A stretch of DNA of 32,000 nt from Telmatocola sphagniphila (GTDB lineage: Bacteria > Planctomycetota > Planctomycetia > Gemmatales > Gemmataceae). The notes below the pieces were generated by a model. It was not told the origin of the DNA, made no database searches, and saw only the letters and a list, made by a program, of their open reading frames with translations. Below, one piece after another: positions 3,945 through 30,142 of this stretch (the first letter of the stretch is position 1; each line of letters starts with the position of its first letter). The DNA lies in the NCBI RefSeq assembly GCF_018398935.1, contig NZ_CP074694.1:4920001-4952000 (forward strand), read 5' to 3'. A program made the translations under genes and the position numbers.

Positions 3945-4910
3945 CTAATCGCAATCGAATACCACTACAAAACCTCGACTGGTCCCGCAGGCCAGTCTTA
4001 GTCCGTCCGGCGCGTAGGCCAAAGATGTGATCGCGCCCTGCGGCCAGGTGTACGTTCGCAGCAATCGGGCCGACGCGATGTCCCAGATCTGGACTGAGCC
4101 ATCCCGGCTTCCCGTGGCCAGATACTGCCCATCGGGAGAAGCCGCCAGGCAATTGACCGTGCTAATGGGTTCCATCAGATCGCCGTGAGGGCTCTCAGGC
4201 CGTTTGTCGGGTCCTAGCCGCCAGAGACTCACTTGCCTGGGTAGGGCGACCGCCAGATAAGCATCGTCGGGCGTCAGGATCATATCCCGAATCATGTCGT
4301 TGAAGGGAATCTCGGCCTGCTGAGATTGTTTGGTCGGCATCCAGAAAAAAGTTTGTACGATCCAATCGAGGGTCAGCTTATTTTTATCCTCTTCGGCGCT
4401 GTCGAATTGGGGATTCCAAAACCGTACCATTCCCTGTCGGGAAGCACTGATCAGCGTATTTCCATCGTCACTGAAGTGCAGGGCGACGATACGATTTTCA
4501 CTACTGCGGATGAGCGATCGCTCGTGGAGTTGGTTCAAATCAAAGCGGCGGATAACCGCCTGTTTCCAAATGGCTTTTCCCGCCACGCAGAGCAGATTCG
4601 TCTTGGGATCGAACGTCAAAGTGGAGCTGGTCCCGACCGGTCCGGAAAGAGGGAGCGATTCCATATTTCCATTGACCAGCCGATGCAGAACACCCTCGCG
4701 CGTGATGCCGATAAATTGCAGCGGTGGGCCCTGAATCAAAACCTGGTTGAAGGTGTATTCCTCGAAGGGATTGGGGTGAAGGCGCTCGCATTGGCTGCCC
4801 TGCCAGACGCGAACTTTACCCGAACGCTGTTCGTGGGCATACAGGGCCAAGCCGTCCTCCTGAAAGCGGAGATAGGTCACCCGCCCCAACCCCGCTTCGA
4901 GAAGGATCAT
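3945..4910 (-). CDS. WD40-repeat (beta-propeller) protein
   Basis: 321 aa. Repeated units have the D-G...L(A/V)(S/T)GS.DG.V..W(D/N) signature, for example FSDDGNTLISASRQGMVRFWN and ASPDGQYLATGSRDGSVQIWDI, plus YAPDGLRLACGTSRGFVVVFD. Confidence 0.85.
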   Translation of the reverse strand: MILLEAGLGRVTYLRFQEDGLALYAHEQRSGKVRVWQGSQCERLHPNPFEEYTFNQVLIQGPPLQFIGITREGVLHRLVNGNMESLPLSGPVGTSSTLTFDPKTNLLCVAGKAIWKQAVIRRFDLNQLHERSLIRSSENRIVALHFSDDGNTLISASRQGMVRFWNPQFDSAEEDKNKLTLDWIVQTFFWMPTKQSQQAEIPFNDMIRDMILTPDDAYLAVALPRQVSLWRLGPDKRPESPHGDLMEPISTVNCLAASPDGQYLATGSRDGSVQIWDIASARLLRTYTWPQGAITSLAYAPDGLRLACGTSRGFVVVFDCD

Positions 4911-4944
4911 GTATATGCTTTATTGAGAAGGAAGATGACGATGT

Positions 4945-5484
4945 TCAGATGTAAACTACCGCAGGATTCTTCTCTTTGCCGAGATTGGCGATACTGGCCA
5001 GGAGAGACTGAATCGCGGAACGGGTATAGTTGGACCTCAGAATAATCCCAATCAGTTCCGCAAAGTTGGTGTCATCGTGAGCAATAGCAACGCCATCAAG
5101 AGGAGTCTTAATCTTAATTTCCTTTGGTTCTTCCGTTATCGAAGCGTTAAACTTCCGAATCCCATGAATGTATTGGATGCTATTTTCGGGAATCAGATCT
5201 GCTTGCAATCCATCCGAAATGATTTTCAGCGGATAAATATCGGCTTTCTTCGAAGATGCTTGCAAAAGCGTTACTCTTCTCCCACCCAATTTTTTGGCAA
5301 CAATATCAAATTGAATCGTTTTGGTATTTTCCGCATCGGTTACCGTAATCTGCGCAGTGAGTTCACCCTTGGATCGGGTTTCCAAAGGACCGATCTGTTT
5401 CGTAAGTATGTTAATAGGGTCGAGAACTTCCCTTTGTGGGATAGAATCTCCCCACAAATCGTCGAGTTTCTCAGGCATTTTCAA
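4945..5484 (-). CDS. Hypothetical protein (179 aa), no recognisable domain; last gene of the low-GC patch
   Basis: ATG start 10 bp after the stop of the upstream EEP gene. It has balanced soluble composition and no TM or signal peptide. Overlapping + strand ORFs look like antisense junk. Confidence 0.65.
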   Translation of the reverse strand: MKMPEKLDDLWGDSIPQREVLDPINILTKQIGPLETRSKGELTAQITVTDAENTKTIQFDIVAKKLGGRRVTLLQASSKKADIYPLKIISDGLQADLIPENSIQYIHGIRKFNASITEEPKEIKIKTPLDGVAIAHDDTNFAELIGIILRSNYTRSAIQSLLASIANLGKEKNPAVVYI

Positions 5485-5494
5485 TCTCCCTTAT

Positions 5495-6331
5495 TTAGCT
5501 CAGCAAAGTAAATAATACCGCAAAATGATCGGAAATTCTACGGCCATTGGGCTGACCGGCTTCAGTGCTCATCGTTTCCCTACCATCGGAATCGATAATT
5601 TGAACATCCTGCAGCTCATCCATAATCTCTGGGCTCAACAGCACTTGATCTAGCATGTGCCAGCCCGGATTGACATGCTCTGCAGATTTATAAAAATAAG
5701 TGCCCGGAGGTCCCTGAGAACGATCTCCAAAATGAGACCACATCGGGTTGTAAAAGAGACGATATTCCTTCTGCTGTACGGTGCGTTTTTTGGCAGCTAA
5801 CTCCCTCGGCGAAACTGCGGCAAATTTAAGTGATGAGAGCATACCCGCGTCGTACGGGTTCATATTGAAATCGCCTACGATGATGGTTCTTAAGGAATGC
5901 GAAAACTGCGTCTCTTGAAGTCGAATTTGGTTAATGACTTCGCCTGCATGTTCGGAGATGGACTCTTTGTCCCAAAATTGGTGTGATGGGAAATGAACAA
6001 GGCAAAGTAGGAATGGCTTTTCTGCGAGCGCGACGTTCCAGATGCTGAGCCGATTGTCTGGTGTGTTATAAACCCACGAAATTTCTGTCGAAGCTACTCG
6101 ATATAAAACTTGGAAGCGGGGATTCACATTCTCAGCGATGACAAACTTGCTATTTGCGTTTCCTAGATTGAAATTTGACCAGTCGTTTGGCACCAATTTG
6201 GATTCGGCCAGCAAGAGGTAATCGATCTGATAATGCGCAACCATCCTCGACAAATGCTTGAGGATGTTCGTTTTCCGATCCTGCCAGGTAACAGCATCGT
6301 TTCCTTTGAGATTCCAAAATAAGAACTTCAT
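5495..6331 (-). CDS. Endonuclease/exonuclease/phosphatase (EEP) fold protein, catalytic motifs intact
   Basis: 278 aa. Ordered EEP motifs are present: FLFWNL (metal-binding Asn), LLLAE (Glu), LVHFPS (His), IIVGDFNMNP (Asp/Asn), MLDQVLLS (Asp) and RISDHFAVL (Asp-His). Confidence 0.8.
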   Translation of the reverse strand: MKFLFWNLKGNDAVTWQDRKTNILKHLSRMVAHYQIDYLLLAESKLVPNDWSNFNLGNANSKFVIAENVNPRFQVLYRVASTEISWVYNTPDNRLSIWNVALAEKPFLLCLVHFPSHQFWDKESISEHAGEVINQIRLQETQFSHSLRTIIVGDFNMNPYDAGMLSSLKFAAVSPRELAAKKRTVQQKEYRLFYNPMWSHFGDRSQGPPGTYFYKSAEHVNPGWHMLDQVLLSPEIMDELQDVQIIDSDGRETMSTEAGQPNGRRISDHFAVLFTLLS

Positions 6332-6411
6332 ATTCTGTGAGCGAGAGAGACTGAAGGATCAACTTTCTGCTATTCTTGCGAATCTTCAGCCAGAACACAA
6401 ACCCGTTTTCC

Positions 6412-7854
6412 TCACTTACCCAAATCCGGCGCTTCGTACCCTGTCACTCCCTCAGGTGCGATCAGCTTCGGCTTGAACTCTCCCGGAGCGATCTTGCACA
6501 ATTGGTTGTGCACGCGCTGCCGGTATTCGCAGGCCAGTGTTACCACTTCCTTCAACTCGGTATCGAGAATTTTCCCATCGGGATAGAGCAACTTGATCAG
6601 GCCGCTGCCGGTGCGCTCGATGGCCGTCTGATCGCGCTTGGTCAGACCGGGCTGTAAAGGAACCGTTCGCACCGTATCGGCGAAACTGTCTTCCCGCATC
6701 CGGCACAGGACTTCCCCGAAATAATCGGTTACAAAACCAACGCCGCTGGCGATCGAAGTCGGTGTGATCTTGGGGATTTCCCAGCCCGGCAGGTAAATGT
6801 GCATGCGGTCGTGGAAGGCACTGTCGATCAATTCCTTGGGCAGCGGTTCGAGCAAATTGTTGTATCTCGAATGCGGCTGATTCCCCTCGACATCGATATT
6901 GCCGGAGAACACCAATCCCGCATCGGTCGCAAAGGTCAGTGAGCCGCGCGAAAACTGACCCGATTCCATGTAATCCTTCATGACACTGATCATGGATTCA
7001 TCGTTGAAAGTCGTATGCGCAATCTCGTCGAAGATCACTACTTTGCGAGTGCCCAGGATGCCCACCTGCTTGGTGGAAAGATTGACGAACAGATTGGCCG
7101 GGGTTGCCTTGCCGCCTGAAATGACGAAACTGCGCGGCGACACATTGCGCAACAAAAAGGTCTTGCCCGTCTGACGCGGGCCCAGTTCCATCAGGTTGAT
7201 ATTCCGTTCCACCAGCGGCAATAATCGCGAGATCAACAGCAATTTCGTACGGCGGTCGGGAAACTTTTCCGGATTGTAACCGGCGCTTTGAAACATCAGA
7301 GCTAGCCATTCGTCCGAAGTGAATTTCAAACGCATGGCCTTGTGCGCTTCCACATCCGGCGGGCCGACCTGAAACGGCGTGAAGGATTCCAAAGACGAGG
7401 GAAAATTCTTATCGCTTTCCGGACTGTAGCGAATCTTGGCCGTGCCCCACATACCCCCCATCAGACCAGGGTATTGCTCCAGGAGCGAATTGCTGACGAT
7501 GATCTTGTCGTTCAGAACCGTCGTTCGCCCCAGAGCCAGGCGCTTTTTGAGATCGATATCGACATCAATACTATCGATGAACAGGATCTCGCCCGTTCGC
7601 AGCAGTTTAGCCTGCATCTGCTCGCGATCTTCCAGGGACGGCAGCAAAGCTTTGATCTTCGCCTGCACGTTGGCGATATCGGCTTTCCAGGTTTCCGGTT
7701 TGACGTACTTGGCGATCAGGTATTCCGACACAAATCGAGGCAGCCCCGTCAAAGTCGCCTGGGAAGCGAGCGATTTTAATACAACCTTGTCCCCGAGGGT
7801 CTCCAGGGCTTTTTTGTCGAGATCGGTCAGCTGATGTTCATCGTAAAGAGACAT
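6412..7854 (-). CDS. BrxL-like AAA+ ATPase (BrxL N-terminal and ATPase regions, no Lon-protease domain)
   Basis: 480 aa. Walker A is ELGPRQTGKTF and Walker B is KVVIFDEIA. The segments ISGGKATPANLF, MKDYMESGQFSRG, VFSGNI and DRMHIYLPGWEIPK are colinear with BREX BrxL as I remember it. The N-terminus (LGDKVVLKSL...LPRFVSEYLIAKY) resembles the BrxL N-domain. The ORF ends about 200 aa before the position where BrxL carries its Lon-like protease domain. Confidence 0.85.
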   Translation of the reverse strand: MSLYDEHQLTDLDKKALETLGDKVVLKSLASQATLTGLPRFVSEYLIAKYVKPETWKADIANVQAKIKALLPSLEDREQMQAKLLRTGEILFIDSIDVDIDLKKRLALGRTTVLNDKIIVSNSLLEQYPGLMGGMWGTAKIRYSPESDKNFPSSLESFTPFQVGPPDVEAHKAMRLKFTSDEWLALMFQSAGYNPEKFPDRRTKLLLISRLLPLVERNINLMELGPRQTGKTFLLRNVSPRSFVISGGKATPANLFVNLSTKQVGILGTRKVVIFDEIAHTTFNDESMISVMKDYMESGQFSRGSLTFATDAGLVFSGNIDVEGNQPHSRYNNLLEPLPKELIDSAFHDRMHIYLPGWEIPKITPTSIASGVGFVTDYFGEVLCRMREDSFADTVRTVPLQPGLTKRDQTAIERTGSGLIKLLYPDGKILDTELKEVVTLACEYRQRVHNQLCKIAPGEFKPKLIAPEGVTGYEAPDLGK

Positions 7855-7901: not shown

Positions 7902-9092
7902 CTAGCCAAACACCGCATCGAGATCGGGGTTGTGTCGCATGTCGTTCGAAGGAGGCGCGGTCGGTTTTACCAACGGTTCACCAAATTTCGCAATCAAGGT
8001 CTCAGCCGCCAGACGAATCTTTTCGAGCTTGCGTTTAGCCGCCTCGATCAGCTCGGCGTCCATCCCGTGCAGTTTGGCGAGATCGTTCTTTTCGGTCAGG
8101 TTATTAAACTGGCGTCGAATCAAATCGACCGATAAATCGAATTTGGGATCAATATCCAAAATCTTCCGGCACTCCGCTTCACCAAGACCACCGGATACTG
8201 GTGTAGGAGCGGGAGCGGTCCCGGGAGCAGTCGGGATGATCGTTGCTCCTGAAGTCGACGTCGGCGAAACGCTCGGCTGATAGCTGGCGAACGGATCATC
8301 CGTTTTCGGTTTCGCTTTTTCTTTGTGCGACGCAGAGGCAGTGGAAGTAGTTGTGGCATTCGATGCCGGGACCGATTTGGGAGGCAAAGTCGGAATGATG
8401 ATCGCCCCCACTTTGGGAAGCGGCTGGGCCATCAATTCCTCACTAATTCCCGACGAAGCGTTGCCGAAGAGGCTATTCAAAAACGAGATTCGACGAGCCC
8501 CTTCTACCAGAGGCGTGAACTGATCTCGAGTCCGCTTCAGGGCATCAATCTCGGCTTTTGAGGTCAGGCTGCGCTGTTGGAGGGCGCGGTCAATGTCTTC
8601 CAGTTGCGCGAGTAACTCCGCCGCCCCGGGAACTTTACCGGCCTGCAGTTGTTGCTCGGACTTTTGACGAAGATCCTCAGCGGCATCGGTGATCCATTTC
8701 CACTTTGTCTCGGCGATGCCGGGAATCTTTCCGGTGGTCAAATTCTTCCAGCGATTGAAGTCGGTGAGATTCAGGTAGCCGGCTTTTTTCAGAGCATCGA
8801 TGGTGGCCGGGCCGATGTTGGGATAATCGTCGAGGGCCTCGACAGAAATCGATTTGAAGAAGTTGTCCCGGTATTGGGAACGGACTTTCTCTTGCTGCTC
8901 GTCCTTGTCTTTCTGCTCGTTACTGATTTGCGCTTGCGCGGTACCGATCTTCCGATCGATGTCTTCCAGTGCGGAGAGTACCCGGATTTTCCAAGCCCCG
9001 GCCGGGGAGGCGCGGAAACGCAGATAAAAGAAAGTAATCGCGCCGGCAGCGACCAGCACTAACAGCAAAATAATAATCAGGAAGGTATTCAT
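7902..9092 (-). CDS. Membrane-anchored protein: N-terminal TM, coiled coil, two helix-hairpin-helix-like motifs, P/T/S-rich linker, and a C-terminal J-domain-like helical region without HPD
   Basis: 396 aa. The N-terminal TM is MNTFLIIILLLVLVAAGAITFFYL. HhH-like motifs are NIGPATIDALKKAGY and IPGIAETKWKWI. The linker is low complexity (PPKSVPASNATTTSTASAS...TAPGTAPAPTP). The C-terminus (CRKILDIDPKFDLSVDLIRRQFNNLTEKNDLAKLHG...KLEKIRLAAETL) is patterned like a J domain but lacks the HPD tripeptide. Confidence 0.7.
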   Translation of the reverse strand: MNTFLIIILLLVLVAAGAITFFYLRFRASPAGAWKIRVLSALEDIDRKIGTAQAQISNEQKDKDEQQEKVRSQYRDNFFKSISVEALDDYPNIGPATIDALKKAGYLNLTDFNRWKNLTTGKIPGIAETKWKWITDAAEDLRQKSEQQLQAGKVPGAAELLAQLEDIDRALQQRSLTSKAEIDALKRTRDQFTPLVEGARRISFLNSLFGNASSGISEELMAQPLPKVGAIIIPTLPPKSVPASNATTTSTASASHKEKAKPKTDDPFASYQPSVSPTSTSGATIIPTAPGTAPAPTPVSGGLGEAECRKILDIDPKFDLSVDLIRRQFNNLTEKNDLAKLHGMDAELIEAAKRKLEKIRLAAETLIAKFGEPLVKPTAPPSNDMRHNPDLDAVFG

Positions 9093-11663: not shown

Positions 11664-12407
11664 TTAGCCTTCCTTGATTTCGATTCCCGATTTCTGCTTC
11701 GCCCACATCAATTCCAAAAGTGTCGCGATGCGGCGGACCGCATCCGGCACGGTCACGCCGCGCGTATGAATGTTGGCAATCAAATTGCGGTCCGCATCGG
11801 TCTGCCCGGCGTGCGGGGAGTAAGCCATATAGGCGGAAAGGCTTTCCGAAGTAGCTAATCCCGGGCGTTCCCCAATCAGAAGTACAACCGTCTTGGGCTT
11901 GAGAATCTCGCCAATAGCATTCAGCAACCCTACCCGGGCATAGCGAACCACGAAGGACCTACCGACCGACCAATGGCGGTTTTCAAACTCCTCGCTTAAA
12001 GCTGGTAGCAACGCCGGAACCTGCGACTCCACGGCCGTGCAGGATAAGCCATCGCCGATGACGATCTGAACATCCGCATTCATAGGACAATTGTTGAGGA
12101 TCAGCTCGAGGGCCTGCGGCGCGAACTTTCTCCCCAGGTCGGGCCGCAGTAAATATTCGTCCTTACTGCGGGCCTGACTTTGCACTTCAAACAGACCGAA
12201 GCGTTGGATCAGTTCTGGCCCCAATGCATTTTTCCAGTCGAGTTCACTGCGCACGGCATCGCGCGCGGCCGCATGATCGGCCCGCAACTGTAACGCGGTG
12301 GAAGTGCGATAAGCCGGCCCGCTTCGACCCACCAGCAGGCGGGCGGGCGTGCTCTGGAGAATCTGCCGGATGGGATCGAGGGGAACCAGTTCGGATTCCT
12401 CAGCCAT
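11664..12407 (-). CDS. eutC: Ethanolamine ammonia-lyase small subunit
   Basis: 247 aa. It is colinear with E. coli EutC: LRADHAAARDAV, YLLRPDLGR, DVQIVIGDGLS, VVLLIGERPGL..SESLSAY and IANIH. Confidence 0.9.
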   Translation of the reverse strand: MAEESELVPLDPIRQILQSTPARLLVGRSGPAYRTSTALQLRADHAAARDAVRSELDWKNALGPELIQRFGLFEVQSQARSKDEYLLRPDLGRKFAPQALELILNNCPMNADVQIVIGDGLSCTAVESQVPALLPALSEEFENRHWSVGRSFVVRYARVGLLNAIGEILKPKTVVLLIGERPGLATSESLSAYMAYSPHAGQTDADRNLIANIHTRGVTVPDAVRRIATLLELMWAKQKSGIEIKEG

Positions 12408-13875
12408 TGCGAATTTTCTCCTGGAAGTGGATGATCGGCGGACCCGGGAAATGCTTCCGGGCGTAGCCGTACCACACCGCCGTGAGCAGCACGGCCATAC
12501 CGCCTACCACCACAACCGCCCGGTCGTTGGGCGGCTGCATGCCGATGACAATCAGGCCCACACAACCCAGGACACTAATCAGCGACAGCGGACGATACCA
12601 ATGACCGAGATTCCAGGGACCGACTTGAGATTTCCACTGGCTGAAATTCCAAGCGCCGATGGCCGTGGGTAAAACGTAGGAAATGTAAAGAAAAACGGTG
12701 CAAACCGCCGTAATCGTTGCATAGACCGGCGTGTAAATCGTGAACAGGATGGAACTGAGACTGACGACCCAGATCGCCAGCACCGGGCTACGATGTCTCG
12801 GCGAAACCTTTCGCAGCCGATTGGAAAATGGCATCCCGCCATCGCGAGCGAATGCGAACGCGACCCGGGAAGTGGAAGTCACGGTGGCCAACCCACAGAG
12901 ATACTGCGCGAACGCTATAGCAACGAATAAGCCCCGCGCCAGGCCCGAAGGCAATCGCTCCTTGAGGACATAGTAGAAGACACCATCGCCTTCCTCGGCG
13001 GCCGATTTCATATCGGGAATGGCTAATACGATGGCCGACAGCAAAATCCATCCGAACAATCCGGAAACCGCTACCGAACGCAATATTCCTCGTGGCACCA
13101 GATGAGGGGCATCGTGGGTCTCTTCGGAAACGTGGGCCGAGGCATCAAAACCGGTGATCGTATAAGCCGGGAGCAAAAAGCCGAGGGCAAACAGCCAGAT
13201 CATCGATTCTACAGGTTCCCAGGTCGGATCCACTCCCTCTTTTTTCGGCAAGCCGCTGAAATTGGTGAAGGTAATCAGCCGCGAAAAATCCCAACCGCTG
13301 ATCGAAGCCAAAAGCACAATCACCAGCAGAATTGAAATGCCGAGAATCCACCAACCGCTGAAGTCGGTCAGCCGGCGCGTCCATTCGATCCCTCTATGGT
13401 TGATGAATGCCTGACTGAGCGTTACCAAAGTGACCGCGATCGCCTGAGTTTGCAGATCGAGCGGATCGGCCAGAAACGCTCCGGCGACAAAGCGGACCAT
13501 CCCGACATTGATGGCCGCGAGAACGGTGATCAAGCCGAGCAGATTGAACCAGGCCGTCGCCCAACCGGCGCCTCGGCCACCGAGTATTGCCGCCCAGTGA
13601 TACAGGCCGCCCGCGGTCGGAAAGGCGGAAGCCAGCTGCCCCATCGTCGCGGCCACGGCCAGGGCAAACAACGAAACCAACGGCCAACCTATACCGATGG
13701 ATGCCCCGCCCACCGAATCGAAGCCGACGTGAAAAGACGTGATCCCTCCCGCCAGGATGCAGATGATCGAAAGCGAGATGGCAAAGTTGGAAAAGCCTCC
13801 CAGGCAGCGCACCAACTCCTGGGCGTAACCTAGGCGGGCGAGGAGTTTGGCATCATCCGCATCGCTATCGGCCAC
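12400..13875 (-). CDS. APC-superfamily amino acid/amine permease (probable ethanolamine transporter by context)
   Basis: 491 aa with about 12 hydrophobic segments. The N-terminal L.R.LG....L....F.N..ISLSII and the AFPTAGGLYHWA motif are typical of APC permeases. It overlaps the eutC start by 8 nt and begins 13 nt after the eutB stop. Confidence 0.88.
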   Translation of the reverse strand: MADSDADDAKLLARLGYAQELVRCLGGFSNFAISLSIICILAGGITSFHVGFDSVGGASIGIGWPLVSLFALAVAATMGQLASAFPTAGGLYHWAAILGGRGAGWATAWFNLLGLITVLAAINVGMVRFVAGAFLADPLDLQTQAIAVTLVTLSQAFINHRGIEWTRRLTDFSGWWILGISILLVIVLLASISGWDFSRLITFTNFSGLPKKEGVDPTWEPVESMIWLFALGFLLPAYTITGFDASAHVSEETHDAPHLVPRGILRSVAVSGLFGWILLSAIVLAIPDMKSAAEEGDGVFYYVLKERLPSGLARGLFVAIAFAQYLCGLATVTSTSRVAFAFARDGGMPFSNRLRKVSPRHRSPVLAIWVVSLSSILFTIYTPVYATITAVCTVFLYISYVLPTAIGAWNFSQWKSQVGPWNLGHWYRPLSLISVLGCVGLIVIGMQPPNDRAVVVVGGMAVLLTAVWYGYARKHFPGPPIIHFQEKIRNG

Positions 13876-13888
13876 GCGATTCTCCTGT

Positions 13889-15304
13889 TCAGCCGGTAAT
13901 CATTCGAGACAAAGAATCCGTCAAAGCAGGCAGGCGATCGTTGAGAGCCAGTTTCCCGTGCTGAAACAGGCCGCGACTTTCCAGCCACTGGGCAAACTCC
14001 GGCGCGGGCTTCAATTGCAGAAGCGAGCGAACCAGAGCCGCATCGTGATAGCTCGTCGATTGATAATTCAGCATCACATCGTCGGAAGCCGGTACGCCCA
14101 TCACGTAGTTGCAGCCGGCGGAGGCCAGCAGAATCAGCAGATTATCGGTAGAATTCGCATCGGCTTCCGCGTGATTGGTGTAGCAAACATCCACGCCCAT
14201 TGGCAGGCCGAGCAACTTGCCCATGAAGTGGTCTTCGAGCCCGGCCCGAGTGATCTGCCGCTCATCGGCCAGATATTCCGGGCCGATGAACCCCACCACG
14301 CTGTTGATCAGGAACGGATTATAGGTGCGGGCCAGACCATAAGCTTGCGCTTCGAGCGTCAACTGATCGATGCCGTGATGAGCCTCGGCCGACAAAGCAC
14401 TTCCTTGTCCCGTTTCGAAGTAAAGGAATTGCTCGCCGACCCAATGCACATCGCGTCGGCGGTGATGCTCGCGAACTTTCTCGGCCGCTGCGGTCAATCG
14501 GTCGAGTTCCACGCCGAAGGAAGCATTAGCCTTCTGAGTTCCCGCGATCGATTGAAAAAGCAGATCGACGGGGGCTCCCCGTTCCATAGCGGCAATCTGC
14601 GTGGTGAAGTGGGCCAGGCAGCAAGCTTGCGTGGGCACTTGAAGGGTTTCAATAAGTCGATCCAGACCGCGCAGAATGGTCGATACCGCTTCGATGGATT
14701 CCGCCGCTGGATTAATGCCAATCACGGCATCCCCACACCCGTAAGCCAAACCCTCGAGTGCGCCCAAAAGGATTGCCGGGAGATCATCGGTGGGATGATT
14801 CGGCTGCGCCCGCACGGCAAAAACACCTTCTTCGCCAATAGTATTCCGGCAGCGGGTGACGATGCGAATTTTTCGGGCCACGTAAATGAGTTCCTTGTTG
14901 CTCATTAGCTTGGCGACAGCCGCGGCCATCGTCGGAGTGATTCCCCAGCGAACTTTCTCAAGCGCGGCTTGATCGGTCGGATCCTCCAGAAGCCATTCGC
15001 GGAATTGACCCACGGTCTGAGAGCGAATCGGCTGAAAAGGGGAGTTCTGGTGCGAACTGAAAATACGCCGGGTGACATCATCCAGATCGGGGTCTAACAG
15101 CGGCTTAGCGAGAATTTCCGAAAGAGGGAGATCGGCCAGCGCGAATTTAGCCGCGGCGCGCTGCCGTTCCGAGGTGGCCGCGATCCCGGCAAGTTGATCG
15201 CCCGATTTCGCTTCGTTGGCCTTGGCCAGCAGTTCCCGCAAATCCGCAAAAGCAAAGCGTTCCCCGCGCAGTATTGCCACGTATGCCATGTGACGCCGTA
15301 CCAT
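13889..15304 (-). CDS. eutB: Ethanolamine ammonia-lyase large subunit
   Basis: 471 aa. F.DL.ELLAKANE.KSGDQLAGIAA near the N-terminus and long colinearity with EutB. The start could instead be the second ATG, 15 nt downstream at 15289. Confidence 0.93.
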   Translation of the reverse strand: MVRRHMAYVAILRGERFAFADLRELLAKANEAKSGDQLAGIAATSERQRAAAKFALADLPLSEILAKPLLDPDLDDVTRRIFSSHQNSPFQPIRSQTVGQFREWLLEDPTDQAALEKVRWGITPTMAAAVAKLMSNKELIYVARKIRIVTRCRNTIGEEGVFAVRAQPNHPTDDLPAILLGALEGLAYGCGDAVIGINPAAESIEAVSTILRGLDRLIETLQVPTQACCLAHFTTQIAAMERGAPVDLLFQSIAGTQKANASFGVELDRLTAAAEKVREHHRRRDVHWVGEQFLYFETGQGSALSAEAHHGIDQLTLEAQAYGLARTYNPFLINSVVGFIGPEYLADERQITRAGLEDHFMGKLLGLPMGVDVCYTNHAEADANSTDNLLILLASAGCNYVMGVPASDDVMLNYQSTSYHDAALVRSLLQLKPAPEFAQWLESRGLFQHGKLALNDRLPALTDSLSRMITG

Positions 15305-16598: not shown

Positions 16599-17900
16599 AT
16601 GTCTGATCTACGCGTCGCTCTTTTGGGTTGTGGAACGGTTGGCGGGGGGGTTGCCCGGATATTGCTCGAGCAACCCGAACGTGTCGCTACCCGCTCGGGA
16701 CGGAAAATTGAACTTAAGAAGATTGCCGTGCGCGATATTTCCAAGCCGCGGCCCGACTGCATTCCAGCTTCCCTGATCACCCGAAACGTCGCCGAGATCT
16801 TTGCCGATCCGACGATCGATGTTGTCGTCGAACTCATGGGCGGCACCGATATCGCCCGGGAATACGTTCTGCAGGCGTTGATGGCCGGCAAGCATGTCGT
16901 CACCGCCAATAAAGCTCTACTGGCCGAGCACGGCGTCGAACTGTTCGAGACGGCCCGCAAACATGACCGGGTCATTGCTTTCGAAGCCAGCGTTGCGGGT
17001 GGCATCCCGATTGTCGCCGCCATCGCCCAAAGCCTCACCGCCAATCAGATCACGGCCATTCAAGGCATATTGAACGGAACCAGCAACTTCATCCTCACGG
17101 CCATGTCCGAAAAAGGGATGAGCTACAGCGCCGCCTTGAAAGAGGCTCAGCGACTGGGTTACGCCGAGGCCGATCCGACGCTCGATGTCGATGGCTCGGA
17201 TGCAGCCGCGAAACTCTGCGTGCTGGCTCAACTGGCTTTCGGCCTGAATGTGACCGTGAAATCGATCGAACGATTCGGCATTTCTGAAATGAATTCAATC
17301 GATTTGAAATATGCTCAGGAGCTGGGTTACACGGTGAAACTTCTGGCCGAAGCCTGGCTCGATGGCAAGGATGTCGCCATGCACGTCGCTCCAGTGCTCT
17401 TGCGAAATACCGACATGCTGGCCCAGGTCCGGGGAGCGCATAACGCCATCCAGATCATGGGTGATGTGGTCGGCGAAACACTGTACCAAGGTGCGGGCGC
17501 GGGCGAGATGCCGACCGCCAGCGCGGTCGTGGCTGATATTATCGACCTCGCAGTGGGTCGGGCCCAGGCGACGTTCCAGGCGGCCAAGCTCTGGCAACCT
17601 TCGGGCAAAGGCTTCCGACTCCGACCTTCCACCCGGGTCCGCTCACGATTCTATCTGCGCGTTTTAGTGGCCGATAAACCGGGGATGCTGGCCGAGGTGG
17701 CCCGCAGTCTGGCCGATGTCGGGATCAGCATTTCCTCCGTGATCCAACACGAAGCCGTGGAAGAGCATCAAGGGGATGTGGTCCCGCTGGTGATCATCAC
17801 CCATTATGCCGAAACGGGCAAATTCCGCACGGCCCTGGAACATATCAACAGGCTGCCCGGGATTGCGGCCCCAGGCGTGCACTTCTCGATGGACGACTAA
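16599..17900 (+). CDS. hom: Homoserine dehydrogenase with C-terminal ACT domain
   Basis: LRVALLGCGTVGGGV NAD-binding motif, VVTANKALLA, ASVAGGIPI, GILNGTSNFILT, LGYAEADPT.DV.G.DAA.K, and an ACT-like tail (FYLRVLVADKPGMLAEVARSLAD.GISI.SV.Q). I set the start at the ATG at 16599; the track used the GTG at 16587. Confidence 0.92.
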   Translation: MSDLRVALLGCGTVGGGVARILLEQPERVATRSGRKIELKKIAVRDISKPRPDCIPASLITRNVAEIFADPTIDVVVELMGGTDIAREYVLQALMAGKHVVTANKALLAEHGVELFETARKHDRVIAFEASVAGGIPIVAAIAQSLTANQITAIQGILNGTSNFILTAMSEKGMSYSAALKEAQRLGYAEADPTLDVDGSDAAAKLCVLAQLAFGLNVTVKSIERFGISEMNSIDLKYAQELGYTVKLLAEAWLDGKDVAMHVAPVLLRNTDMLAQVRGAHNAIQIMGDVVGETLYQGAGAGEMPTASAVVADIIDLAVGRAQATFQAAKLWQPSGKGFRLRPSTRVRSRFYLRVLVADKPGMLAEVARSLADVGISISSVIQHEAVEEHQGDVVPLVIITHYAETGKFRTALEHINRLPGIAAPGVHFSMDD

Positions 17901-18748
17901 TTTTTCTTCAAATAGTCCCGCAGCGGTAGTAACGTGCCGGGCAGATTGTTATCGTGCGGCACGATCACCAGTCCATAATCGCGGACGTAAATTTCGATCT
18001 CCGTCTGATCTTCGATCAACAAAAACAGGGCGCCGAGACTCACGGGAGCTTCGGACTTGGGAATCTTGAAGTGGATCTTGAGGGCGTCATCCCCCTGGTC
18101 ACTCTGAAGCTTGGTTTGAATCAGAATTTTCGTCCCGGCCTTCTTCTGGAGTTCCGCCAGCCCTAACGCCAACGGCATTTCGAAGCTTTCGTCAAAGGTG
18201 AGTTTGGCGGCAAAATCCTTGTCGAGTTGTGCGACCAGATCCTTGGGTAATTGTTCTCGAGGATGGGCGACCGGCACGCTTTGATGCCGTTTTTCAACGT
18301 AATAGGGTGAGGCCGGTGCGTCGGCCGGCATCAAAGGAGCCACGCCCAAAATCTGGGTCAATTCCGCATTTTTGACCGTTTCTATCGCCACCGCTTTATT
18401 GCGGCTTTCCTCGGCAGCTTTCTTTTCGGCTGCCGGAAGGGCCGCGTTCTGAAGCTTCTCGTCGGCCTGACCGATCGTTTCCCGGGCTTTATCCCGTTCC
18501 TGCCGCACGGCCTGCAACTTGGAGGCCACGGCCAGTTTCACCCGCTTCAATTCGTTCTGAGCTTCGCGCATTTTGTTCTCGGCCAGTCGCAATTCGGCAT
18601 TGAATTGCAGCGCGGCGGCGAGTTGCTTGTCCGGATCGGCATCCAGAAGCCGGTTAACGTCGAATTTCTTGGGGGTTTCGGCGACCGGAGCTTGCGAAAA
18701 GGCCCAGCTCGATGTGAAAAAAATAAGTAGAAGAAATGTCCACTTCAT
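17897..18748 (-). CDS. Secreted coiled-coil protein, unknown function
   Basis: I trimmed the track ORF (to 18964) to the ATG at 18748. That ATG is preceded by GGAGG 6 nt upstream and opens a clean signal peptide (MKWTFLLLIFFTSSWAFSQAP). The middle is coiled-coil (AELRLAENKMREAQNELKRVKLAVASKLQAV). The C-terminal ~90 aa resemble the small secretin/STN-like alpha-beta modules common in Planctomycetes; this last point is weak. Confidence 0.7.
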   Translation of the reverse strand: MKWTFLLLIFFTSSWAFSQAPVAETPKKFDVNRLLDADPDKQLAAALQFNAELRLAENKMREAQNELKRVKLAVASKLQAVRQERDKARETIGQADEKLQNAALPAAEKKAAEESRNKAVAIETVKNAELTQILGVAPLMPADAPASPYYVEKRHQSVPVAHPREQLPKDLVAQLDKDFAAKLTFDESFEMPLALGLAELQKKAGTKILIQTKLQSDQGDDALKIHFKIPKSEAPVSLGALFLLIEDQTEIEIYVRDYGLVIVPHDNNLPGTLLPLRDYLKKN

Positions 18749-18912
18749 AGGTACCTCCAAAGGAAGTCGGTGCGGAATCGAATTACCTTCAGCAATTTGC
18801 CAATTGGTAGAATCCGTTTTACAGAAAGCTAATAAAAAATAAGCGCACGCCCCGGAGCACACCCAGGCCGAGAAGAAGCGGCTCTCCGGAGTTTTTGCCT
18901 TTCCTGAAATGA

Positions 18913-21900
18913 TTGTTAGACATTGGCGATCTTCAGATCCGGAAATGGTTGGAAGTGGAAGCAAATATCGAATTCGAAGCGGCGCGGGAAGCGCTGGATA
19001 AAGAACTGTCCCGAGTAGCGCCCGTCGCCCGACAGGTTCCCCTGTTTTGGTTACGGCGGATCATCCGTCGCCACCGTCAGATGCCAGCCTCCGCCGGACC
19101 GGCTCCCCACGAAAACGATTACTACATCAGTCGGGACGATCTGGAAAGCGTGGTCGATCCGCAGGAAATCGGCTTGCAGCAACCGCTGCCCGATCACATT
19201 CTTCTGCTGCCGGAATTGGACGAAGACGAGCTGCGCAACCGGCCCTACGACTGGCACCATCGCATCGAAGCGGCCCTGTTCCACTACATGCTCGACCTTC
19301 GCTTCGAGGAACGATTTCCCGATTTTGAATCGACCCGGGTGCTCTGGTCCATTATCGGCCGGTCGCAGCGCGAGGAAATCCGCCTGGTTCTTAACGAGCA
19401 GGGTCGGATCTTTCCCGAGGACGACTACTACACCCAGGTGGAAGAAACCGTCGGCCTGTTTCTCGAACTGTGGTACTTCGATCGCGAGCGGATGGACGAT
19501 TTCTTTCCCGGAATGTCGAACATCGCCGAGCTGGCAAAAATTTTCGAAGAAAAACTCGATTCAGCGCCGCTCGCCGAGGCCTGCCGCTTGCGCCTGAACG
19601 AACCGAAGAAAAAGCCGGGCGCTCCAGAAATTCAAAGGCCCAATTTCACCCACTCCGAACGCTCGAAACTGCAACTGCAAGCCGCCAAATCGGCCACTCA
19701 GGGCAATCTCGTTCGGGCCATGCTCATTCAGGAAAAGCTCGGGGAAACAGCCGAAGCGAACGCGATCCAGCAACAGTTTCTCACTCGTTTGAATAAAGCG
19801 CTGCCGCACGAAAAGGAAATCGACCTCACTTCCATCTGTACCAGCCTCCGCCAACAGGGCATCTCCTCGGAAGTTCCACTCGAGGCCAGGCTGCTTTTCG
19901 ATTTGCAGAACGTCTGCATCGACGTGGAACAGCCGATCTTTGCCGTGGATGTAATGGAGTCGGTTCTGACGCTGGGGCGCAAGCCGATCAAGCGCGAACT
20001 AGCTGATACGCGGGAAATCCGGCTAATCCGGCACCTCCGTTCCGCCTTGAAACACTCCGAGGAGATTTCCGATTTCGATTCTTCCCTGATCCCGCTGTCG
20101 CAATTTTTAAGCGAGATCATCCACGACCTGGAACATGCGGTACGGGAGAAAATCCGGCCGATTCTGCACAGTTCGCTCGAAGAAGTCGGTCTGGTGGCCA
20201 CCAATCTGCCGGAAAAAATTTCGCGCGACAAGTTGGTGGAAGAGATGCTTGACGCCATCGTCGAGCGGGGATTTTTGCGAATGGGCGATGTGCGCGACGC
20301 CATCGCTCGAAACCAGCTGAAACTCCAGGATGTCTCCGGTTTCAAAGAGTTCCTGCGCGGCGATGCCTTACTGCGGCTCAATTGGCTGCTGCCCTACAAG
20401 CTGGATGGGATTTACCAGCGTGGCGAAATCTACTTGCGCATCTTTCAACGCGCTAGTTCGGTTTTCTTCGGCACCATCAAGGGTCGCATCGTCACCAAGT
20501 ATCTGATAATGCCCTTTGGCGGCGCGTTTTTGTTCCTCGAAGGCATCCACCATTTCTGGGACGCCATCGACGGTTTTGCCCGCTTCTTTGTGAACAACCC
20601 CCGTCCCGAACATGTGGTGGATGGGGCCATGAAATCGGTCACCCAGCTGCTGCCGTTGCGCAAAGCTCTGGGAAGTGTCGGCCGGTATACCCCCGAAGAG
20701 CCTACCTGGGCCACGCTGCCCGCGGTGGTCATGCTGGGGATATTTCTGCTCGGCATGTTCTACATCCCGAACTTCCGCCGGGCGGTGTTTCAAGGAATCA
20801 CCAATCTGCTCTACCGCTGGCCGCGGGCTATTTTCGAAGCGCCGATCGTTCAGCGCGTCCTCCACAATCCGATTACCCGCTGGATCCGAAAATATCTGCT
20901 GGTTCCAACGGTTTCCGGCCTGTTTGCGGCGGTGCTGGCGCGCCTGTTGGGGGAAGAAGCCTGGTCCTGCGCCGGGTTGGGCTGCATGGTCGCCTTCATG
21001 ACCAGTATTTTCTTCCGCACGCGGACCGGCCGGGAGCTTGAGGAGCAGATCGACGAATTCATCGGGTACTTCTGGCATCGCTTCACGTTGGGCACCATCA
21101 TCGGAATTTTTGAAGCGATTTTCTACTTCTTCAAAAACGTTCTCGAACATATCGAACGGGGCATATACCTGGTCGATGAAACTCTTCGCTTCCGCGAAGG
21201 GCAAAGCCGGGTCGTCTATTACCTCAAAATGGTGGCCGGGATTTTCTGGTTCTTTCTGACCTACGTATTTCGATTCTGCTGGAACCTGCTGATCGAACCG
21301 CAAATCAATCCGATCAAGCACTTCCCGGTCGTCACCGTGTCGCACAAACTGCTGTTGCCGTTGATTCCGAACATCGCCGATTCCTTCGGCGTTTCGATAC
21401 AGACGACGACGACTGTAATCTTCGGCGTGCCGGGGATCTTCGGCTTCCTCGCCTGGGAGCTCAAGGAAAACTGGAAACTCTATCGCAGCAACGCCTCGCC
21501 GACGCTCGATCCGGTGGTCATTGGCTCGCACGGCGAAAAAATGCGACGACTCCTTCGCCCGGGGTTTCATTCGGGCACGATTCCCAAGATGTTCGCCAAA
21601 CTGCGGAACAGTCCCACCACCGGACGCATTCGAAAATTCCACAAACAGCTGCACCATATCGAAGAATCTTTGCACCATCTGATGGATCGGCTGATTCTGC
21701 CCTATCTCAAGGCCAGTCAGCGATGGGGCGAAGCGGGTAAACCGGTCCCGGAAGCGATCATCTGGATCGCCACCAACCGCATCGGCTTCGGCTTGTATCT
21801 CCCGGAAGTTGCCCCCGGCGATCCTCTGGAGTTGATGATCGAGGATCGCGAAGGATGTCTGGTGGCCTCCGTGATTCAACCCGGCTGGTTGCTGAAAATT

Positions 21901-22203
21901 CCCGAGAATGCCCAATCGGCCTTTTTCGACGTACTCAGCGCTGCCATGAAATTCGAGGGCGTGGCCGCTTTCAAGCCACACACCGCCTGGCAGGTGGGTT
22001 GCCGGGCCGAGCAGATCGAGATTACTTCAGACGGCCTGGTGATTCAGCAGAAAGATGGATCGACCACACCGATCACTCTGCCGCAAGCCTACATCGAAAA
22101 TTGTCCTTTGAGCTGGGCGGACTGGGTGCGCCAGTGGGAAAGGGATCAGCGGGGGGACACTCCGATTCCCCCACTTCTAATCCGACGGGAAATGTTCAAT
22201 TAG
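18913..22203 (+). CDS. Large multi-pass membrane protein (1096 aa), unknown function
   Basis: Uninterrupted 3.3-kb ORF. It has a ~520-aa helical soluble N-terminal part, about 7 hydrophobic segments between ~nt 20488 and 21465 (for example YLIMPFGGAFLFLEGIHHFW, LPAVVMLGIFLLGMFYI, MVAGIFWFFLTYVF, VIFGVPGIFGFLAW), and a ~240-aa soluble C-terminal part. The track start is a TTG; the true start is uncertain. Confidence 0.8.
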   Translation: MLDIGDLQIRKWLEVEANIEFEAAREALDKELSRVAPVARQVPLFWLRRIIRRHRQMPASAGPAPHENDYYISRDDLESVVDPQEIGLQQPLPDHILLLPELDEDELRNRPYDWHHRIEAALFHYMLDLRFEERFPDFESTRVLWSIIGRSQREEIRLVLNEQGRIFPEDDYYTQVEETVGLFLELWYFDRERMDDFFPGMSNIAELAKIFEEKLDSAPLAEACRLRLNEPKKKPGAPEIQRPNFTHSERSKLQLQAAKSATQGNLVRAMLIQEKLGETAEANAIQQQFLTRLNKALPHEKEIDLTSICTSLRQQGISSEVPLEARLLFDLQNVCIDVEQPIFAVDVMESVLTLGRKPIKRELADTREIRLIRHLRSALKHSEEISDFDSSLIPLSQFLSEIIHDLEHAVREKIRPILHSSLEEVGLVATNLPEKISRDKLVEEMLDAIVERGFLRMGDVRDAIARNQLKLQDVSGFKEFLRGDALLRLNWLLPYKLDGIYQRGEIYLRIFQRASSVFFGTIKGRIVTKYLIMPFGGAFLFLEGIHHFWDAIDGFARFFVNNPRPEHVVDGAMKSVTQLLPLRKALGSVGRYTPEEPTWATLPAVVMLGIFLLGMFYIPNFRRAVFQGITNLLYRWPRAIFEAPIVQRVLHNPITRWIRKYLLVPTVSGLFAAVLARLLGEEAWSCAGLGCMVAFMTSIFFRTRTGRELEEQIDEFIGYFWHRFTLGTIIGIFEAIFYFFKNVLEHIERGIYLVDETLRFREGQSRVVYYLKMVAGIFWFFLTYVFRFCWNLLIEPQINPIKHFPVVTVSHKLLLPLIPNIADSFGVSIQTTTTVIFGVPGIFGFLAWELKENWKLYRSNASPTLDPVVIGSHGEKMRRLLRPGFHSGTIPKMFAKLRNSPTTGRIRKFHKQLHHIEESLHHLMDRLILPYLKASQRWGEAGKPVPEAIIWIATNRIGFGLYLPEVAPGDPLELMIEDREGCLVASVIQPGWLLKIPENAQSAFFDVLSAAMKFEGVAAFKPHTAWQVGCRAEQIEITSDGLVIQQKDGSTTPITLPQAYIENCPLSWADWVRQWERDQRGDTPIPPLLIRREMFN

Positions 22204-22221: not shown

Positions 22222-23838
22222 ATGATTCGAACCCTTCGCACGATCGATCGCACTGAACGCGAAAACTACTCGGAAACGCTGCGCTTCCAGCAGCAGCTTC
22301 TGCAAGCGAAACAGCAGGATCCTTCTCGTCCGGACTACTTGGTCTTTGTCGAGCACGAGCCGATTTATACCACCGGCCGGGGTAAGGAATTGCCGCCGTT
22401 GGTTCCGGAAATTCCGCGGATCGAAGCCAAGCGCGGCGGGCAATCGACCTATCACGGGCCGGGCCAGTTGGTCGGCTACACCCTCCTGGATCTCAACCAG
22501 TCCGGCCGCGATCTGCACAAGTGTCTTCGCCGCATCGAAACCGCGATCATCGACACGCTGGTCGAAATCGGCCTGCCGGCCCGCAGTGTGGAAGGGGCCA
22601 CCGGTGCCTGGATTGGAGAAGAGAATCCTCGCAAAATCGCCTCCATCGGCATCGGCGTCGATGCCTGGATTACTTACCACGGGTGGGCGCTCAACTACGA
22701 TCTCGATCTGGCACCGCTTCGGGCCATCAACCCCTGCGGCCTGGATGCCAGCGTTTACACCACACTGAAACTGGAGTGCGAACGTTACGGACGGGAACTT
22801 CCCAGCCTGACGGCCCTCAAGCGCGATTTGAGCCGCAATCTCGCTCATCAGTTCGACCTGGAACTGGAAGCCAATGGCGAAATTCGGCTGACTGATGATC
22901 CGCGCAAACTGCCGGCCTGGCTGCGCGTGCAAACGCCCGGGACGCCCTCTTACAATCGCACCAAGGATCTGCTGCAAAAGCTCAAGCTGGTAACGGTCTG
23001 CGAAGAAGCACGCTGCCCCAACCACGGCGAATGCTGGAGCCATCGCACGGCGACCTTCATGGTCATGGGTGAACTCTGTACCCGCCGTTGTTCATTCTGC
23101 TCCGTGATGGACGGCACCAAGGAAAATCTTCAGCCGCTAGATACTACCGAGCCCGATCGGGTCGGCCAGGCGGTGAAAACCCTCGGTTTGCATCACATCG
23201 TCATCACCTCGGTGAATCGGGACGATCTTCCCGATATGGGAGCCGCACACTTCGATGCGACCGTTCGCGCGGTGAAGCGCTATCAACCGGAATGCCGAAT
23301 TGAACTCTTGATTCCCGATCAGCGCGGGCAACGGCCACTGGTGGAAAGCATTCTGCGCAGCGGGCAGGTGAGCGTACTGAATCACAATCTGGAAACCGTC
23401 CCCCGGCTCTATCCGACGGTTCGGCCCGGGGCCAAGATGGATCGCTCGCTGAACGTTCTGAAGTGGGCCAAGGATTTGCATCCGAAGATTCTCACCAAGT
23501 CGGGACTGATGCTCGGCCTGGGTGAGACCCGACACGAAGTTTACGAAGTGATGGATGCTTTACGCAGTGTCGGTTGCGACATTTTAACGCTCGGCCAGTA
23601 TCTGCGACCGACTGAGAAGCAACTGCCGATCGCTCGCTTTGTCACACCCGAGGAATTTGACGAATATAAACAGGCCGGGCTGGAGCGCGGCTTCCGGCAC
23701 GTCGAATCGGGGCCCCTGGTGCGCAGTTCGTATCACGCCTGGCAACACGTCGAAGGGGAAACGCCACCGCCCTATGAAGAACCGGCCTTCATCGAAGAGC
23801 CGTTGGAATTGCTCAACATCGGATTGCTGCGGCGCTGA
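22222..23838 (+). CDS. lipB-lipA: Bifunctional fusion: octanoyltransferase (LipB) and lipoyl synthase (LipA)
   Basis: Single 538-aa ORF. The N-terminal ~215 aa are LipB (VEHEPIYTTGRG, RGGQSTYHGPGQLVGY, catalytic Lys in RKIASIGIGV, catalytic Cys in INPCGL). The C-terminal ~320 aa are LipA (auxiliary-cluster CEEARCPNHGEC, radical-SAM CTRRCSFC, NHNLETV, GLMLGLGET, RSSYHA). Confidence 0.9.
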   Translation: MIRTLRTIDRTERENYSETLRFQQQLLQAKQQDPSRPDYLVFVEHEPIYTTGRGKELPPLVPEIPRIEAKRGGQSTYHGPGQLVGYTLLDLNQSGRDLHKCLRRIETAIIDTLVEIGLPARSVEGATGAWIGEENPRKIASIGIGVDAWITYHGWALNYDLDLAPLRAINPCGLDASVYTTLKLECERYGRELPSLTALKRDLSRNLAHQFDLELEANGEIRLTDDPRKLPAWLRVQTPGTPSYNRTKDLLQKLKLVTVCEEARCPNHGECWSHRTATFMVMGELCTRRCSFCSVMDGTKENLQPLDTTEPDRVGQAVKTLGLHHIVITSVNRDDLPDMGAAHFDATVRAVKRYQPECRIELLIPDQRGQRPLVESILRSGQVSVLNHNLETVPRLYPTVRPGAKMDRSLNVLKWAKDLHPKILTKSGLMLGLGETRHEVYEVMDALRSVGCDILTLGQYLRPTEKQLPIARFVTPEEFDEYKQAGLERGFRHVESGPLVRSSYHAWQHVEGETPPPYEEPAFIEEPLELLNIGLLRR

Positions 23839-25838: not shown

Positions 25839-25871
25839 GCTTGGATTCCTTAGATGATTGATTTGCTTGTT

Positions 25872-27305: not shown

Positions 27306-27356
27306 AATGAAGGGGATCCCGAGGGGAACTTACAGTTTCTAGACGCCCGGAGTTGT

Positions 27357-27364
27357 TTTATATT
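27357..27364 (-). promoter_or_regulatory. Candidate -10-like element AATATAAA about 50 nt upstream of paralog 2
   Basis: The same octamer (minus-strand sense AATATAAA) occurs 52 nt upstream of the paralog 2 ATG and 50 nt upstream of the paralog 3 ATG. No convincing -35 element is present. Confidence 0.2.
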
Positions 27365-27394
27365 TCACGCTAACGTATCCCAAAAGCATTTCCT

Positions 27395-28876: not shown

Positions 28877-28925
28877 GGTGCGAATTCCGTTAAGGAATCT
28901 GACATTTTTTAGCGCCGATGGGCGC

Positions 28926-28933
28926 TTTATATT
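28926..28933 (-). promoter_or_regulatory. Candidate -10-like element AATATAAA about 50 nt upstream of paralog 3
   Basis: See the entry at 27357-27364; same octamer at the same spacing. Confidence 0.2.
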
Positions 28934-29079
28934 CCCTCCCAACGCTTCCCGAATGAAAACTGTTTGCGCCGGTTCGGGAGCGAAGAGAATTCAATTCATC
29001 GAATCGGGATCAATGCCCTGTTGCCGTAGGAGATCCCGCATTTTTCGCTGAGCCCGCCTTCGACAACGACAGCAAGGGA

Positions 29080-30036: not shown

Positions 30037-30085
30037 AAAGAAATTTGTCTGATCCGCGGTCGGAGTTGTCAAGGAAAATGCGAAG

Positions 30086-30119
30086 GAACTGTTAAGCACC
30101 TGCGCATTTCTCGGGAAAT
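30086..30119 (-). terminator. Strong hairpin between the peroxiredoxin stop and the prs start
   Basis: gcacctgcgcatttc-tcgg-gaaatacgcaggtgc forms a 15-bp stem with one internal mismatch and a 4-nt loop, 24 nt downstream of the peroxiredoxin stop. The tail after the stem on the minus strand is only 'tt', so it is not a canonical U-tract terminator. Confidence 0.4.
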
Positions 30120-30142
30120 ACGCAGGTGCGGAAGAGGAAAAT

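Follow-up and report, generated by a model that had tools for sequence, protein, structure and literature searches.

The 32,000-nucleotide stretch of Telmatocola sphagniphila DNA analysed here (contig NZ_CP074694.1, below called the window) contains four adjacent minus-strand genes that probably belong to two independent two-gene units and are neighbours in this organism by chance. Unit A consists of a gene for a 480-amino-acid BrxL-type ATPase without a Lon-like domain (6412-7854) and the gene for a 396-amino-acid protein directly upstream of it (7902-9092). Unit B is a cassette in which a gene for a 278-amino-acid protein of the endonuclease/exonuclease/phosphatase (EEP) fold (5495-6331) is followed by a gene for a small protein of 177 amino acids (4945-5478).

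An initial annotation had combined the ATPase, the EEP gene and the small gene into a single three-gene defence-like module. The three open reading frames (ORFs) do lie where it placed them, with spacers of 80 bp (6332-6411) and 10 bp between the mechanically called frames. Comparison of about 120 related loci upholds one of the proposed linkages and removes the other. The EEP gene is directly followed on the same strand by a gene of the 177-amino-acid family in 74 of the 85 loci with at least 450 bp of downstream sequence, and in most of these loci the two genes are separated by a few bases or overlap. The ATPase gene is linked to neither. No EEP or 177-like gene was found by tblastn at any of 21 BrxL loci, 16 of which have at least 1 kb of sequence downstream of brxL, and no BrxL ATPase gene was found upstream of the EEP gene in 52 loci with at least 1.5 kb of upstream sequence. 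A three-gene module is therefore unsupported, and it is rejected here on the neighbourhoods of the BrxL and EEP loci. The initial annotation had itself named ATPase homologs lacking such neighbours and lying outside defence surroundings as the pattern that would speak against its proposal, and the BrxL loci are indeed surrounded by housekeeping genes and not by genes of bacteriophage exclusion (BREX) systems.

The BrxL-type ATPase

The 480-amino-acid product has the motifs GPRQTGKT, VVIFDEIA, MKDYMESGQFSRG and HIYLPGWEIPK, and both Walker A and Walker B are intact. It passes the Pfam models PF13337 (BrxL_ATPase, 366.7 bits against a cut-off of 25) and PF20442 (BrxL_N, 64.1 bits against 28.2), as well as the NCBIfam model TIGR02688 (425.8 bits against 329.3), which the initial annotation had correctly named as a possible family. 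The Lon-containing model TIGR02653, with 675 positions, remains below its cut-off (348.9 bits versus 628.25) and is covered only from position 3 to 459. The protein ends at the pre-Lon linker and the C-terminal Lon-protease-like domain is absent, in agreement with what had been proposed from the sequence. Among the PADLOC models, the long type-1-like model PDLC02506 gives 407 bits as against 253 and 219 bits for the models of 482 residues. Literature searches on TIGR02688 rendered nothing relevant.

The best 120 homologs of this protein are 64-78% identical to it and occur in two sizes, 29 short forms of about 480-545 amino acids and 91 long forms of about 680 amino acids with a Lon_C domain. 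Identity to Gemmataceae BrxL of the two sizes is 65-78%. The short forms end within a few residues of the linker preceding the Lon domain, and a distance tree built on the shared region divides them into about 11 separate groups among the long ones. The loss of the Lon domain has thus been clean and has happened repeatedly. Compared with a 78%-identical short homolog at locus L001, the ratio of nonsynonymous to synonymous substitution rates (dN/dS) of brxL is about 0.12, and the 480-amino-acid protein is under purifying selection.

The protein shares a colinear N-terminal DNA-binding region and MCM-type AAA+ ATPase with BrxL of type 1 BREX (TIGR02653; structure described in PMC10164562) and has 65-68% identity to full-length Gemmataceae BrxL. 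It differs from type 1 BrxL in that the Lon-like C-terminal domain is missing and in that brxA/B/C, pglX and pglZ are not nearby; the upstream gene is pglZ in type 1 BREX and a gene for a membrane protein with (HhH)2 and J-like domains in the window. The initial annotation had reported no pglX, pglZ or brxA/B/C gene in the 32 kb, and Pfam and PADLOC scans of the large ORFs of the window likewise gave no match to PglX, PglZ or BrxA/B/C.

A survey from 2026 reports BrxL as being confined to BREX types 1 and 4 and describes type-4 BrxL as lacking a C-terminal extension (PMC12839542). The window protein has the same domain content as type-4 BrxL, with N-terminal DNA-binding domains followed by the ATPase, and it passes TIGR02688. 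However, it prefers the long BrxL models over the 482-residue PADLOC models and is nested among long Gemmataceae BrxL. Type 4 BREX combines short BrxL with BrxC, PglZ, a PAPS reductase and a DUF4007 protein (PMC12839542), whereas in the window the short BrxL was found with none of these partner genes. A role as a type-4 component was considered and is ruled out by the lack of partner genes and by the nesting among long forms.

The partner gene upstream of brxL

The 21 distinct BrxL loci comprise L001-L003, obtained by look-ups, and L008-L025, obtained by a genome scan. A homolog of the 396-amino-acid protein is encoded directly upstream of brxL, ending 3-60 bp before it, in 15 of the 19 other loci with upstream sequence. 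The complete genome of Limnoglobus roseus has the same arrangement, as does one more place in the metagenomes. The gene at 7902-9092, which the initial annotation had treated as optional, is thus a conserved neighbour of BrxL. Its product matches Telmatocola sphagniphila KIH39_19830 with 100% identity and is 46% identical to the protein encoded immediately upstream of the closest BrxL homolog, and its dN/dS is about 0.17 when compared with L001. All-against-all clustering found no gene family common to the BrxL loci besides this partner, and no BREX gene among the large neighbours.

The alignment of the partner family shows an N-terminal hydrophobic anchor, a (HhH)2 domain at about residues 85-140, a coiled coil, a linker rich in proline, threonine and serine, and a C-terminal domain of about 60 residues, with the invariant tail RHNPDLDxVFG at the end. 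The family profile matches the N-terminal (HhH)2 domains of RadA/Rad51 and L32e with E-values of 1e-5 to 1e-4. Most partner homologs contain a TerB domain (PF05099), which was found in the longer ones and is absent from the copies in the window and in L001. A correlated loss of TerB from the partner and of Lon from BrxL was considered and fails, given that L002 has a short BrxL together with a TerB-containing partner and that a TerB-less partner was found without BrxL. Literature searches found no paper on BrxL together with TerB.

In an hhalign comparison, the C-terminal domain of the partner can be placed in register on the DnaJ J domain over helices I-III (probability 68%, E-value 4.7e-5). 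The HPD motif of the J domain is replaced, by DPA in homologs and by NDL in the window copy, which makes stimulation of Hsp70 unlikely. Profile searches of Pfam and the PDB gave no J-domain match for the partner, and because neither backs the hhalign result, the J-like assignment is a lead only. DjlA-type co-chaperones have a membrane anchor, a TerB-like domain and a C-terminal J domain. Partner homologs share this order of anchor, TerB and J-like C-terminal domain. The partner family differs from DjlA in having (HhH)2 and the invariant tail in addition and in the replaced HPD motif, the window copy differs in lacking TerB, and the J-like assignment is only moderately supported.

The gene that follows brxL varies between loci and encodes ApbE, RNase R or an exosortase in some of them. 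Some loci of Fimbriiglobus have other genes close to the end of brxL: an Upf1-like superfamily 1 helicase (AAA_11/AAA_12) that overlaps brxL or is 8 bp away (L018 11191-13143 and L024 9658-11562), and a 1041-amino-acid SMC/SbcC-like ATPase 38 bp after brxL (L016 11364-14489 and L017 2138-5263). In L001, brxL is overlapped by a downstream gene whose product has a weak, sub-threshold SUKH/SMI1 match. The sequences downstream of brxL hint at a variable slot.

Unit A is probably a BrxL operon independent of BREX, so far in Gemmataceae-type loci only. For its mechanism we infer that the BrxL ring would be ATP-dependent and encircle DNA, and that the membrane-anchored (HhH)2 partner may recruit, hold or load this ring on DNA near the membrane, with the invariant C-terminal tail as a candidate docking peptide. 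The role of the operon could be defence or a lineage-specific chromosome function; both agree with its housekeeping surroundings, its genome-like guanine plus cytosine (GC) content and the strong purifying selection on it.

The EEP gene

With 30.6 bits, the EEP protein clears the PF03372 cut-off of 24.5, and the catalytic residues N6, E42, H112, D153/N155, D227 and D267/H268 do not vary across 31 homologs, in line with the complete set of catalytic motifs noted in the initial annotation. The family also has a motif of its own, FYNPMW..GD..GPPGT. An AlphaFold 2 (AF2) model with a predicted local distance difference test score (pLDDT) of 87 has the EEP fold, and the closest PDB structures are TDP2 (E-value about 1e-12, TM-score about 0.58) and then the LINE-1 endonuclease. 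Sequence profiles give weak matches to ExoIII and to nocturnin/angel, and the exodeoxyribonuclease III equivalog TIGR00633 gives 25 bits against a cut-off of 99.

The best structure and sequence matches are DNA-acting enzymes, which places the protein in the nucleic-acid-acting part of the superfamily, as had been suspected. A lipid or inositol phosphatase was considered and is not supported by these matches. The window protein shares the fold and the full catalytic set with TDP2, the LINE-1 ORF2p endonuclease and exonuclease III, but identity is only 13-18%, and its family is set apart by the motif given above and by the obligate small gene that accompanies it. It is probably a metal-dependent (Mg2+-dependent) DNA phosphodiesterase or nuclease resembling TDP2, LINE-1 or ExoIII enzymes.

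The small partner protein

Homologs of the small protein align from the ATG at 5478, so that the product has 177 amino acids and the spacer to the EEP gene is 16 bp. The length of 179 amino acids given initially came from the mechanical ORF (4945-5484), which has a TTG start, and is corrected by these family alignments. The protein has no match in Pfam, NCBIfam, PADLOC or PHROG, which agrees with the initial failure to assign it to a family. An exhaustive search rendered about 120 cluster representatives at E<=1e-3. Conservation in the family is confined to an N-terminal alpha-beta domain and a C-terminal helical hairpin, with a variable middle between them, and the AF2 model (pLDDT 86.6) correspondingly shows an N-terminal domain of two helices and a multi-stranded sheet, a poorly predicted middle and the C-terminal hairpin. 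None of the invariant residues W9, P21, G38, Y82 and P83 is catalytic-looking.

Foldseek searches with this model against the PDB and BFVD gave no fold relative below an E-value of 0.009. Resemblances to dsRBD/YfiA-like, Gp1.2 and Erf/Rad52-like folds are weak and local and are not relied on.

Linkage and spread of the cassette

The distance matrices of the EEP proteins and their partners are correlated (Mantel r 0.75, a value reached in none of 999 permutations), and the two proteins co-evolve. The partner diverges faster than the EEP protein, with a mean distance of 0.69 versus 0.58. No third conserved neighbour of the pair was found among the EEP loci. One locus, L072, had a hidden Markov model match labelled BrxL; it is a weak match to the Lon-like domain only, on the opposite strand, and was rejected.

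A word-indexed search gave 264 homologs of the EEP protein at E<=1e-3, annotated from several phyla, and a metagenome scan gave at least 544 confirmed matches. There are also 17 IMG/VR contigs with the cassette; these are genuine phages or prophages, as they encode integrase, terminase, portal and head proteins. Its place in viral contigs varies: it is found between terS and terL in L110, between a repressor gene and a tail-spike-like gene in L106, and beside a methyltransferase gene in L118.

Telmatocola sphagniphila has a second EEP and small-protein pair, 46% identical to the first (L006 10001-11315, KIH39_20250 region). It is not accompanied by BrxL and adjoins an aconitase-C-like gene and a resistance-nodulation-division efflux pump. 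Distant homologs of the EEP protein, with 27-30% identity, are encoded on the plasmids pl395 of Bacillus mycoides (L123) and p.1 of Bacillus cereus (L124), each followed by an unannotated gene. One of them precedes a retron Eco8 system (effector and reverse transcriptase) by 1.4 kb; the other is found beside a DUF4365 gene and an integrase gene, with SIR2 and TIR genes at a distance of about 7 kb.

Neither the EEP protein nor the 177-amino-acid protein matches a model in PADLOC-DB 2.0 at E<=0.1, so the initial statement that no named system is matched holds for this pair, and literature searches for EEP-based defence systems found nothing relevant. The cassette nevertheless resembles toxin-antitoxin (TA) modules, abortive-infection modules and prophage morons in being a compact, mobile pair of genes with patchy occurrence, varied insertion sites and a faster-evolving second component; it differs in having no PADLOC 2.0 match. 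The 177-amino-acid protein would bind the EEP enzyme and either keep it inactive until a trigger appears or direct it to its substrate. The cassette would then be accessory cargo of prophages and plasmids and would work as a module of the toxin-antitoxin, abortive-infection or exclusion kind. Our best guess is that unit B is a nuclease with a neutralising or targeting partner.

The cassette as a probable separate insert

The GC content is 42-47% over 4950-6350, as compared with 52-57% over brxL and its partner gene and 54-62% over the neighbouring gene for a WD40 protein. This low-GC island coincides exactly with the EEP and 177 cassette, which is compositionally foreign and a separate acquisition. 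An imperfect 19-nt direct repeat, identical at 15 of 19 positions, brackets the cassette almost exactly. Its left copy (4901-4919) overlaps the start codon of the WD40 gene and its right copy (6353-6371) lies within the spacer between brxL and the EEP gene. The repeat may be an insertion scar or due to chance, and since such short pairs occur by chance in 2 kb it is suggestive only. A peat metagenome contig (L026) has the identical EEP-177-WD40 junction arrangement with 99% identity. Unit B is thus probably a mobile cassette that has been inserted between brxL and the WD40 gene.

Layout of the locus and the remainder of the window

All genes discussed above are on the minus strand and are transcribed in the order 396-amino-acid ORF, ATPase, EEP, small ORF and WD40. 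The WD40 gene (3945-4910) starts 34 bp beyond the small ORF. The remaining genes of the window are housekeeping genes, including those for GDP-sugar dehydratases and an aldo-keto reductase, eutBC, hom, a lipB-lipA fusion, prs and a peroxiredoxin gene, together with several ORFs of unknown kind.

Some of these have features of their own. On the minus strand, three paralogous ORFs of 482, 477 and 515 amino acids lie in tandem (24390-28942). They are mutually 47-60% identical, all with a hydrophobic segment at the N-terminus, and none matches Pfam or PADLOC; the GC content falls to about 48% at 25001-26000 within this region. On the plus strand, a single ORF of 538 amino acids (22222-23838) fuses an LplA-B_cat domain (lipoyl/octanoyl transferase) to lipoyl synthase (LIAS_N and Radical_SAM). 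An amino-acid permease gene (12400-13875) is situated between eutB and eutC, the ethanolamine ammonia-lyase genes (11664-15304, minus strand), and overlaps the start of eutC. A 1096-amino-acid ORF on the plus strand (18913-22203) overlaps a 355-amino-acid ORF on the minus strand (17897-18964); neither matches Pfam or PADLOC, and one of the two may be a spurious antisense ORF. The ribose-phosphate pyrophosphokinase ORF (29080-30267, minus strand) has about 80 additional N-terminal residues ahead of Pribosyltran_N, and its start codon may have been miscalled in the mechanical ORF list.

Discussion

The two linkages, the lack of any linkage between the units and the foreign composition of the cassette all point to two independent pairs of genes. 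Several observations weigh against this interpretation or against the roles suggested for the units. The ATPase, EEP and small-protein genes are on one strand and the 80-bp spacer is without a predicted terminator, so co-transcription is possible; neither a sigma-70-like nor a terminator-like site was predicted on the coding strand of the spacer, by a scan whose output is at background level and uninformative. The linkage of BrxL to its partner is strong but not absolute: BrxL is without the partner in 4 of the 19 loci, and of 7 partner-anchored places, 3 have no BrxL. Nearly all BrxL loci are from one bacterial family because the scan detects close relatives only, and usable context for short BrxL comes from only four distinct loci, namely the window, L001, L002 and L003.

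For unit B, the genes closest to the cassette (two on either side, in 150 metagenomic EEP cases) are mostly metabolic. The PADLOC families among them are represented by one protein each, in a count made without a background control, and such scattered single matches do not demonstrate that the cassette is enriched in defence islands. The inhibitor or adaptor role of the 177-amino-acid protein is a guess for a protein without a recognisable fold relative.

It is also conceivable, though unlikely, that unit B serves in repair or in the processing of DNA ends, as an enzyme aided by an accessory factor, either removing 5' protein adducts as TDP2 does or cleaning nicks and ends in the manner of ExoIII, and that genomes and phages keep it for DNA maintenance. 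TDP2 and then the LINE-1 endonuclease are the best structural matches and ExoIII is among the weak profile matches, the chromosomal neighbours are mostly housekeeping genes, and some phage copies are near DNA methyltransferase or RecT-type genes. However, a TM-score of about 0.58 is a general EEP resemblance only. Occurrence in two diverged copies in one genome and a fast-evolving obligate partner are more typical of selfish or conflict modules, and because of its patchy spread across phyla, its varied insertion sites and its carriage by prophages and plasmids, unit B fits a conflict module better than repair.

A quite improbable alternative, the initial proposal or a weaker form of it, joins the two units again. 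The BrxL pair would be the conserved core of a non-BREX defence system and the EEP and 177 cassette would fill an exchangeable effector slot downstream of it, with the nuclease as effector of the DNA-loaded BrxL ring in place of the lost Lon domain. This would agree with the shared strand, the short spacer without a predicted terminator and the tightly coupled genes after brxL in L001, L016, L017, L018 and L024, which act on nucleic acids or belong to conflict systems. It also has a precedent in type 1 BREX, where an HKD nuclease replaces the Lon domain in 1030 of 2913 BrxL proteins (PMC12839542). These fusions likewise have a nuclease-fold protein at the place of Lon, but the HKD domain is fused to BrxL and found inside BREX loci, whereas the EEP protein is encoded by a separate gene of an autonomous cassette that has no conserved link to BrxL; in the window, adjacency is the sole basis for regarding the nuclease as a stand-in for Lon. 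In the other loci the cassette never adjoins BrxL, it is autonomous in about 95 of them, including the second copy in the same genome, and judged by GC content it was acquired separately. The genes after brxL elsewhere include plain housekeeping genes such as those for ApbE, RNase R and exosortase.

That the short BrxL is a functionless, decaying remnant of a lost BREX system is very improbable: the lack of BREX genes nearby, the missing Lon domain and the scatter of short forms among long ones would fit such decay, but the ATPase motifs are intact, brxL evolves under constraint, the short forms end precisely at a domain boundary and not randomly, and in the same bacterial family the relatives of full length likewise lie outside BREX and keep the partner gene.

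Two independent units thus remain the probable interpretation. A tentative extension of it, which we consider possible rather than likely, is that both are undescribed conflict systems. Unit A would then be a BREX-independent Gemmataceae system of a BrxL ring and a membrane-anchored (HhH)2/TerB/J-like protein, perhaps with exchangeable effectors, and unit B a member of a widespread anti-phage or TA family of EEP and small proteins on phages and plasmids.

The side-by-side position of the genes in a single genome had suggested a three-gene system, which the comparison of genomes does not bear out, and the correction is of value in itself. The EEP and small-protein cassette, which is unnamed, uncharacterised and present in at least 544 metagenome matches, would be a sensible choice for challenge assays with phages and plasmids. 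A clade of BrxL outside BREX, with and without Lon and with its own membrane-anchored (HhH)2 partner, contrasts with the specificity for BREX types 1 and 4 stated in the survey (PMC12839542). Such a BREX-free BrxL would give a simpler setting for asking what the BrxL ring does on DNA.

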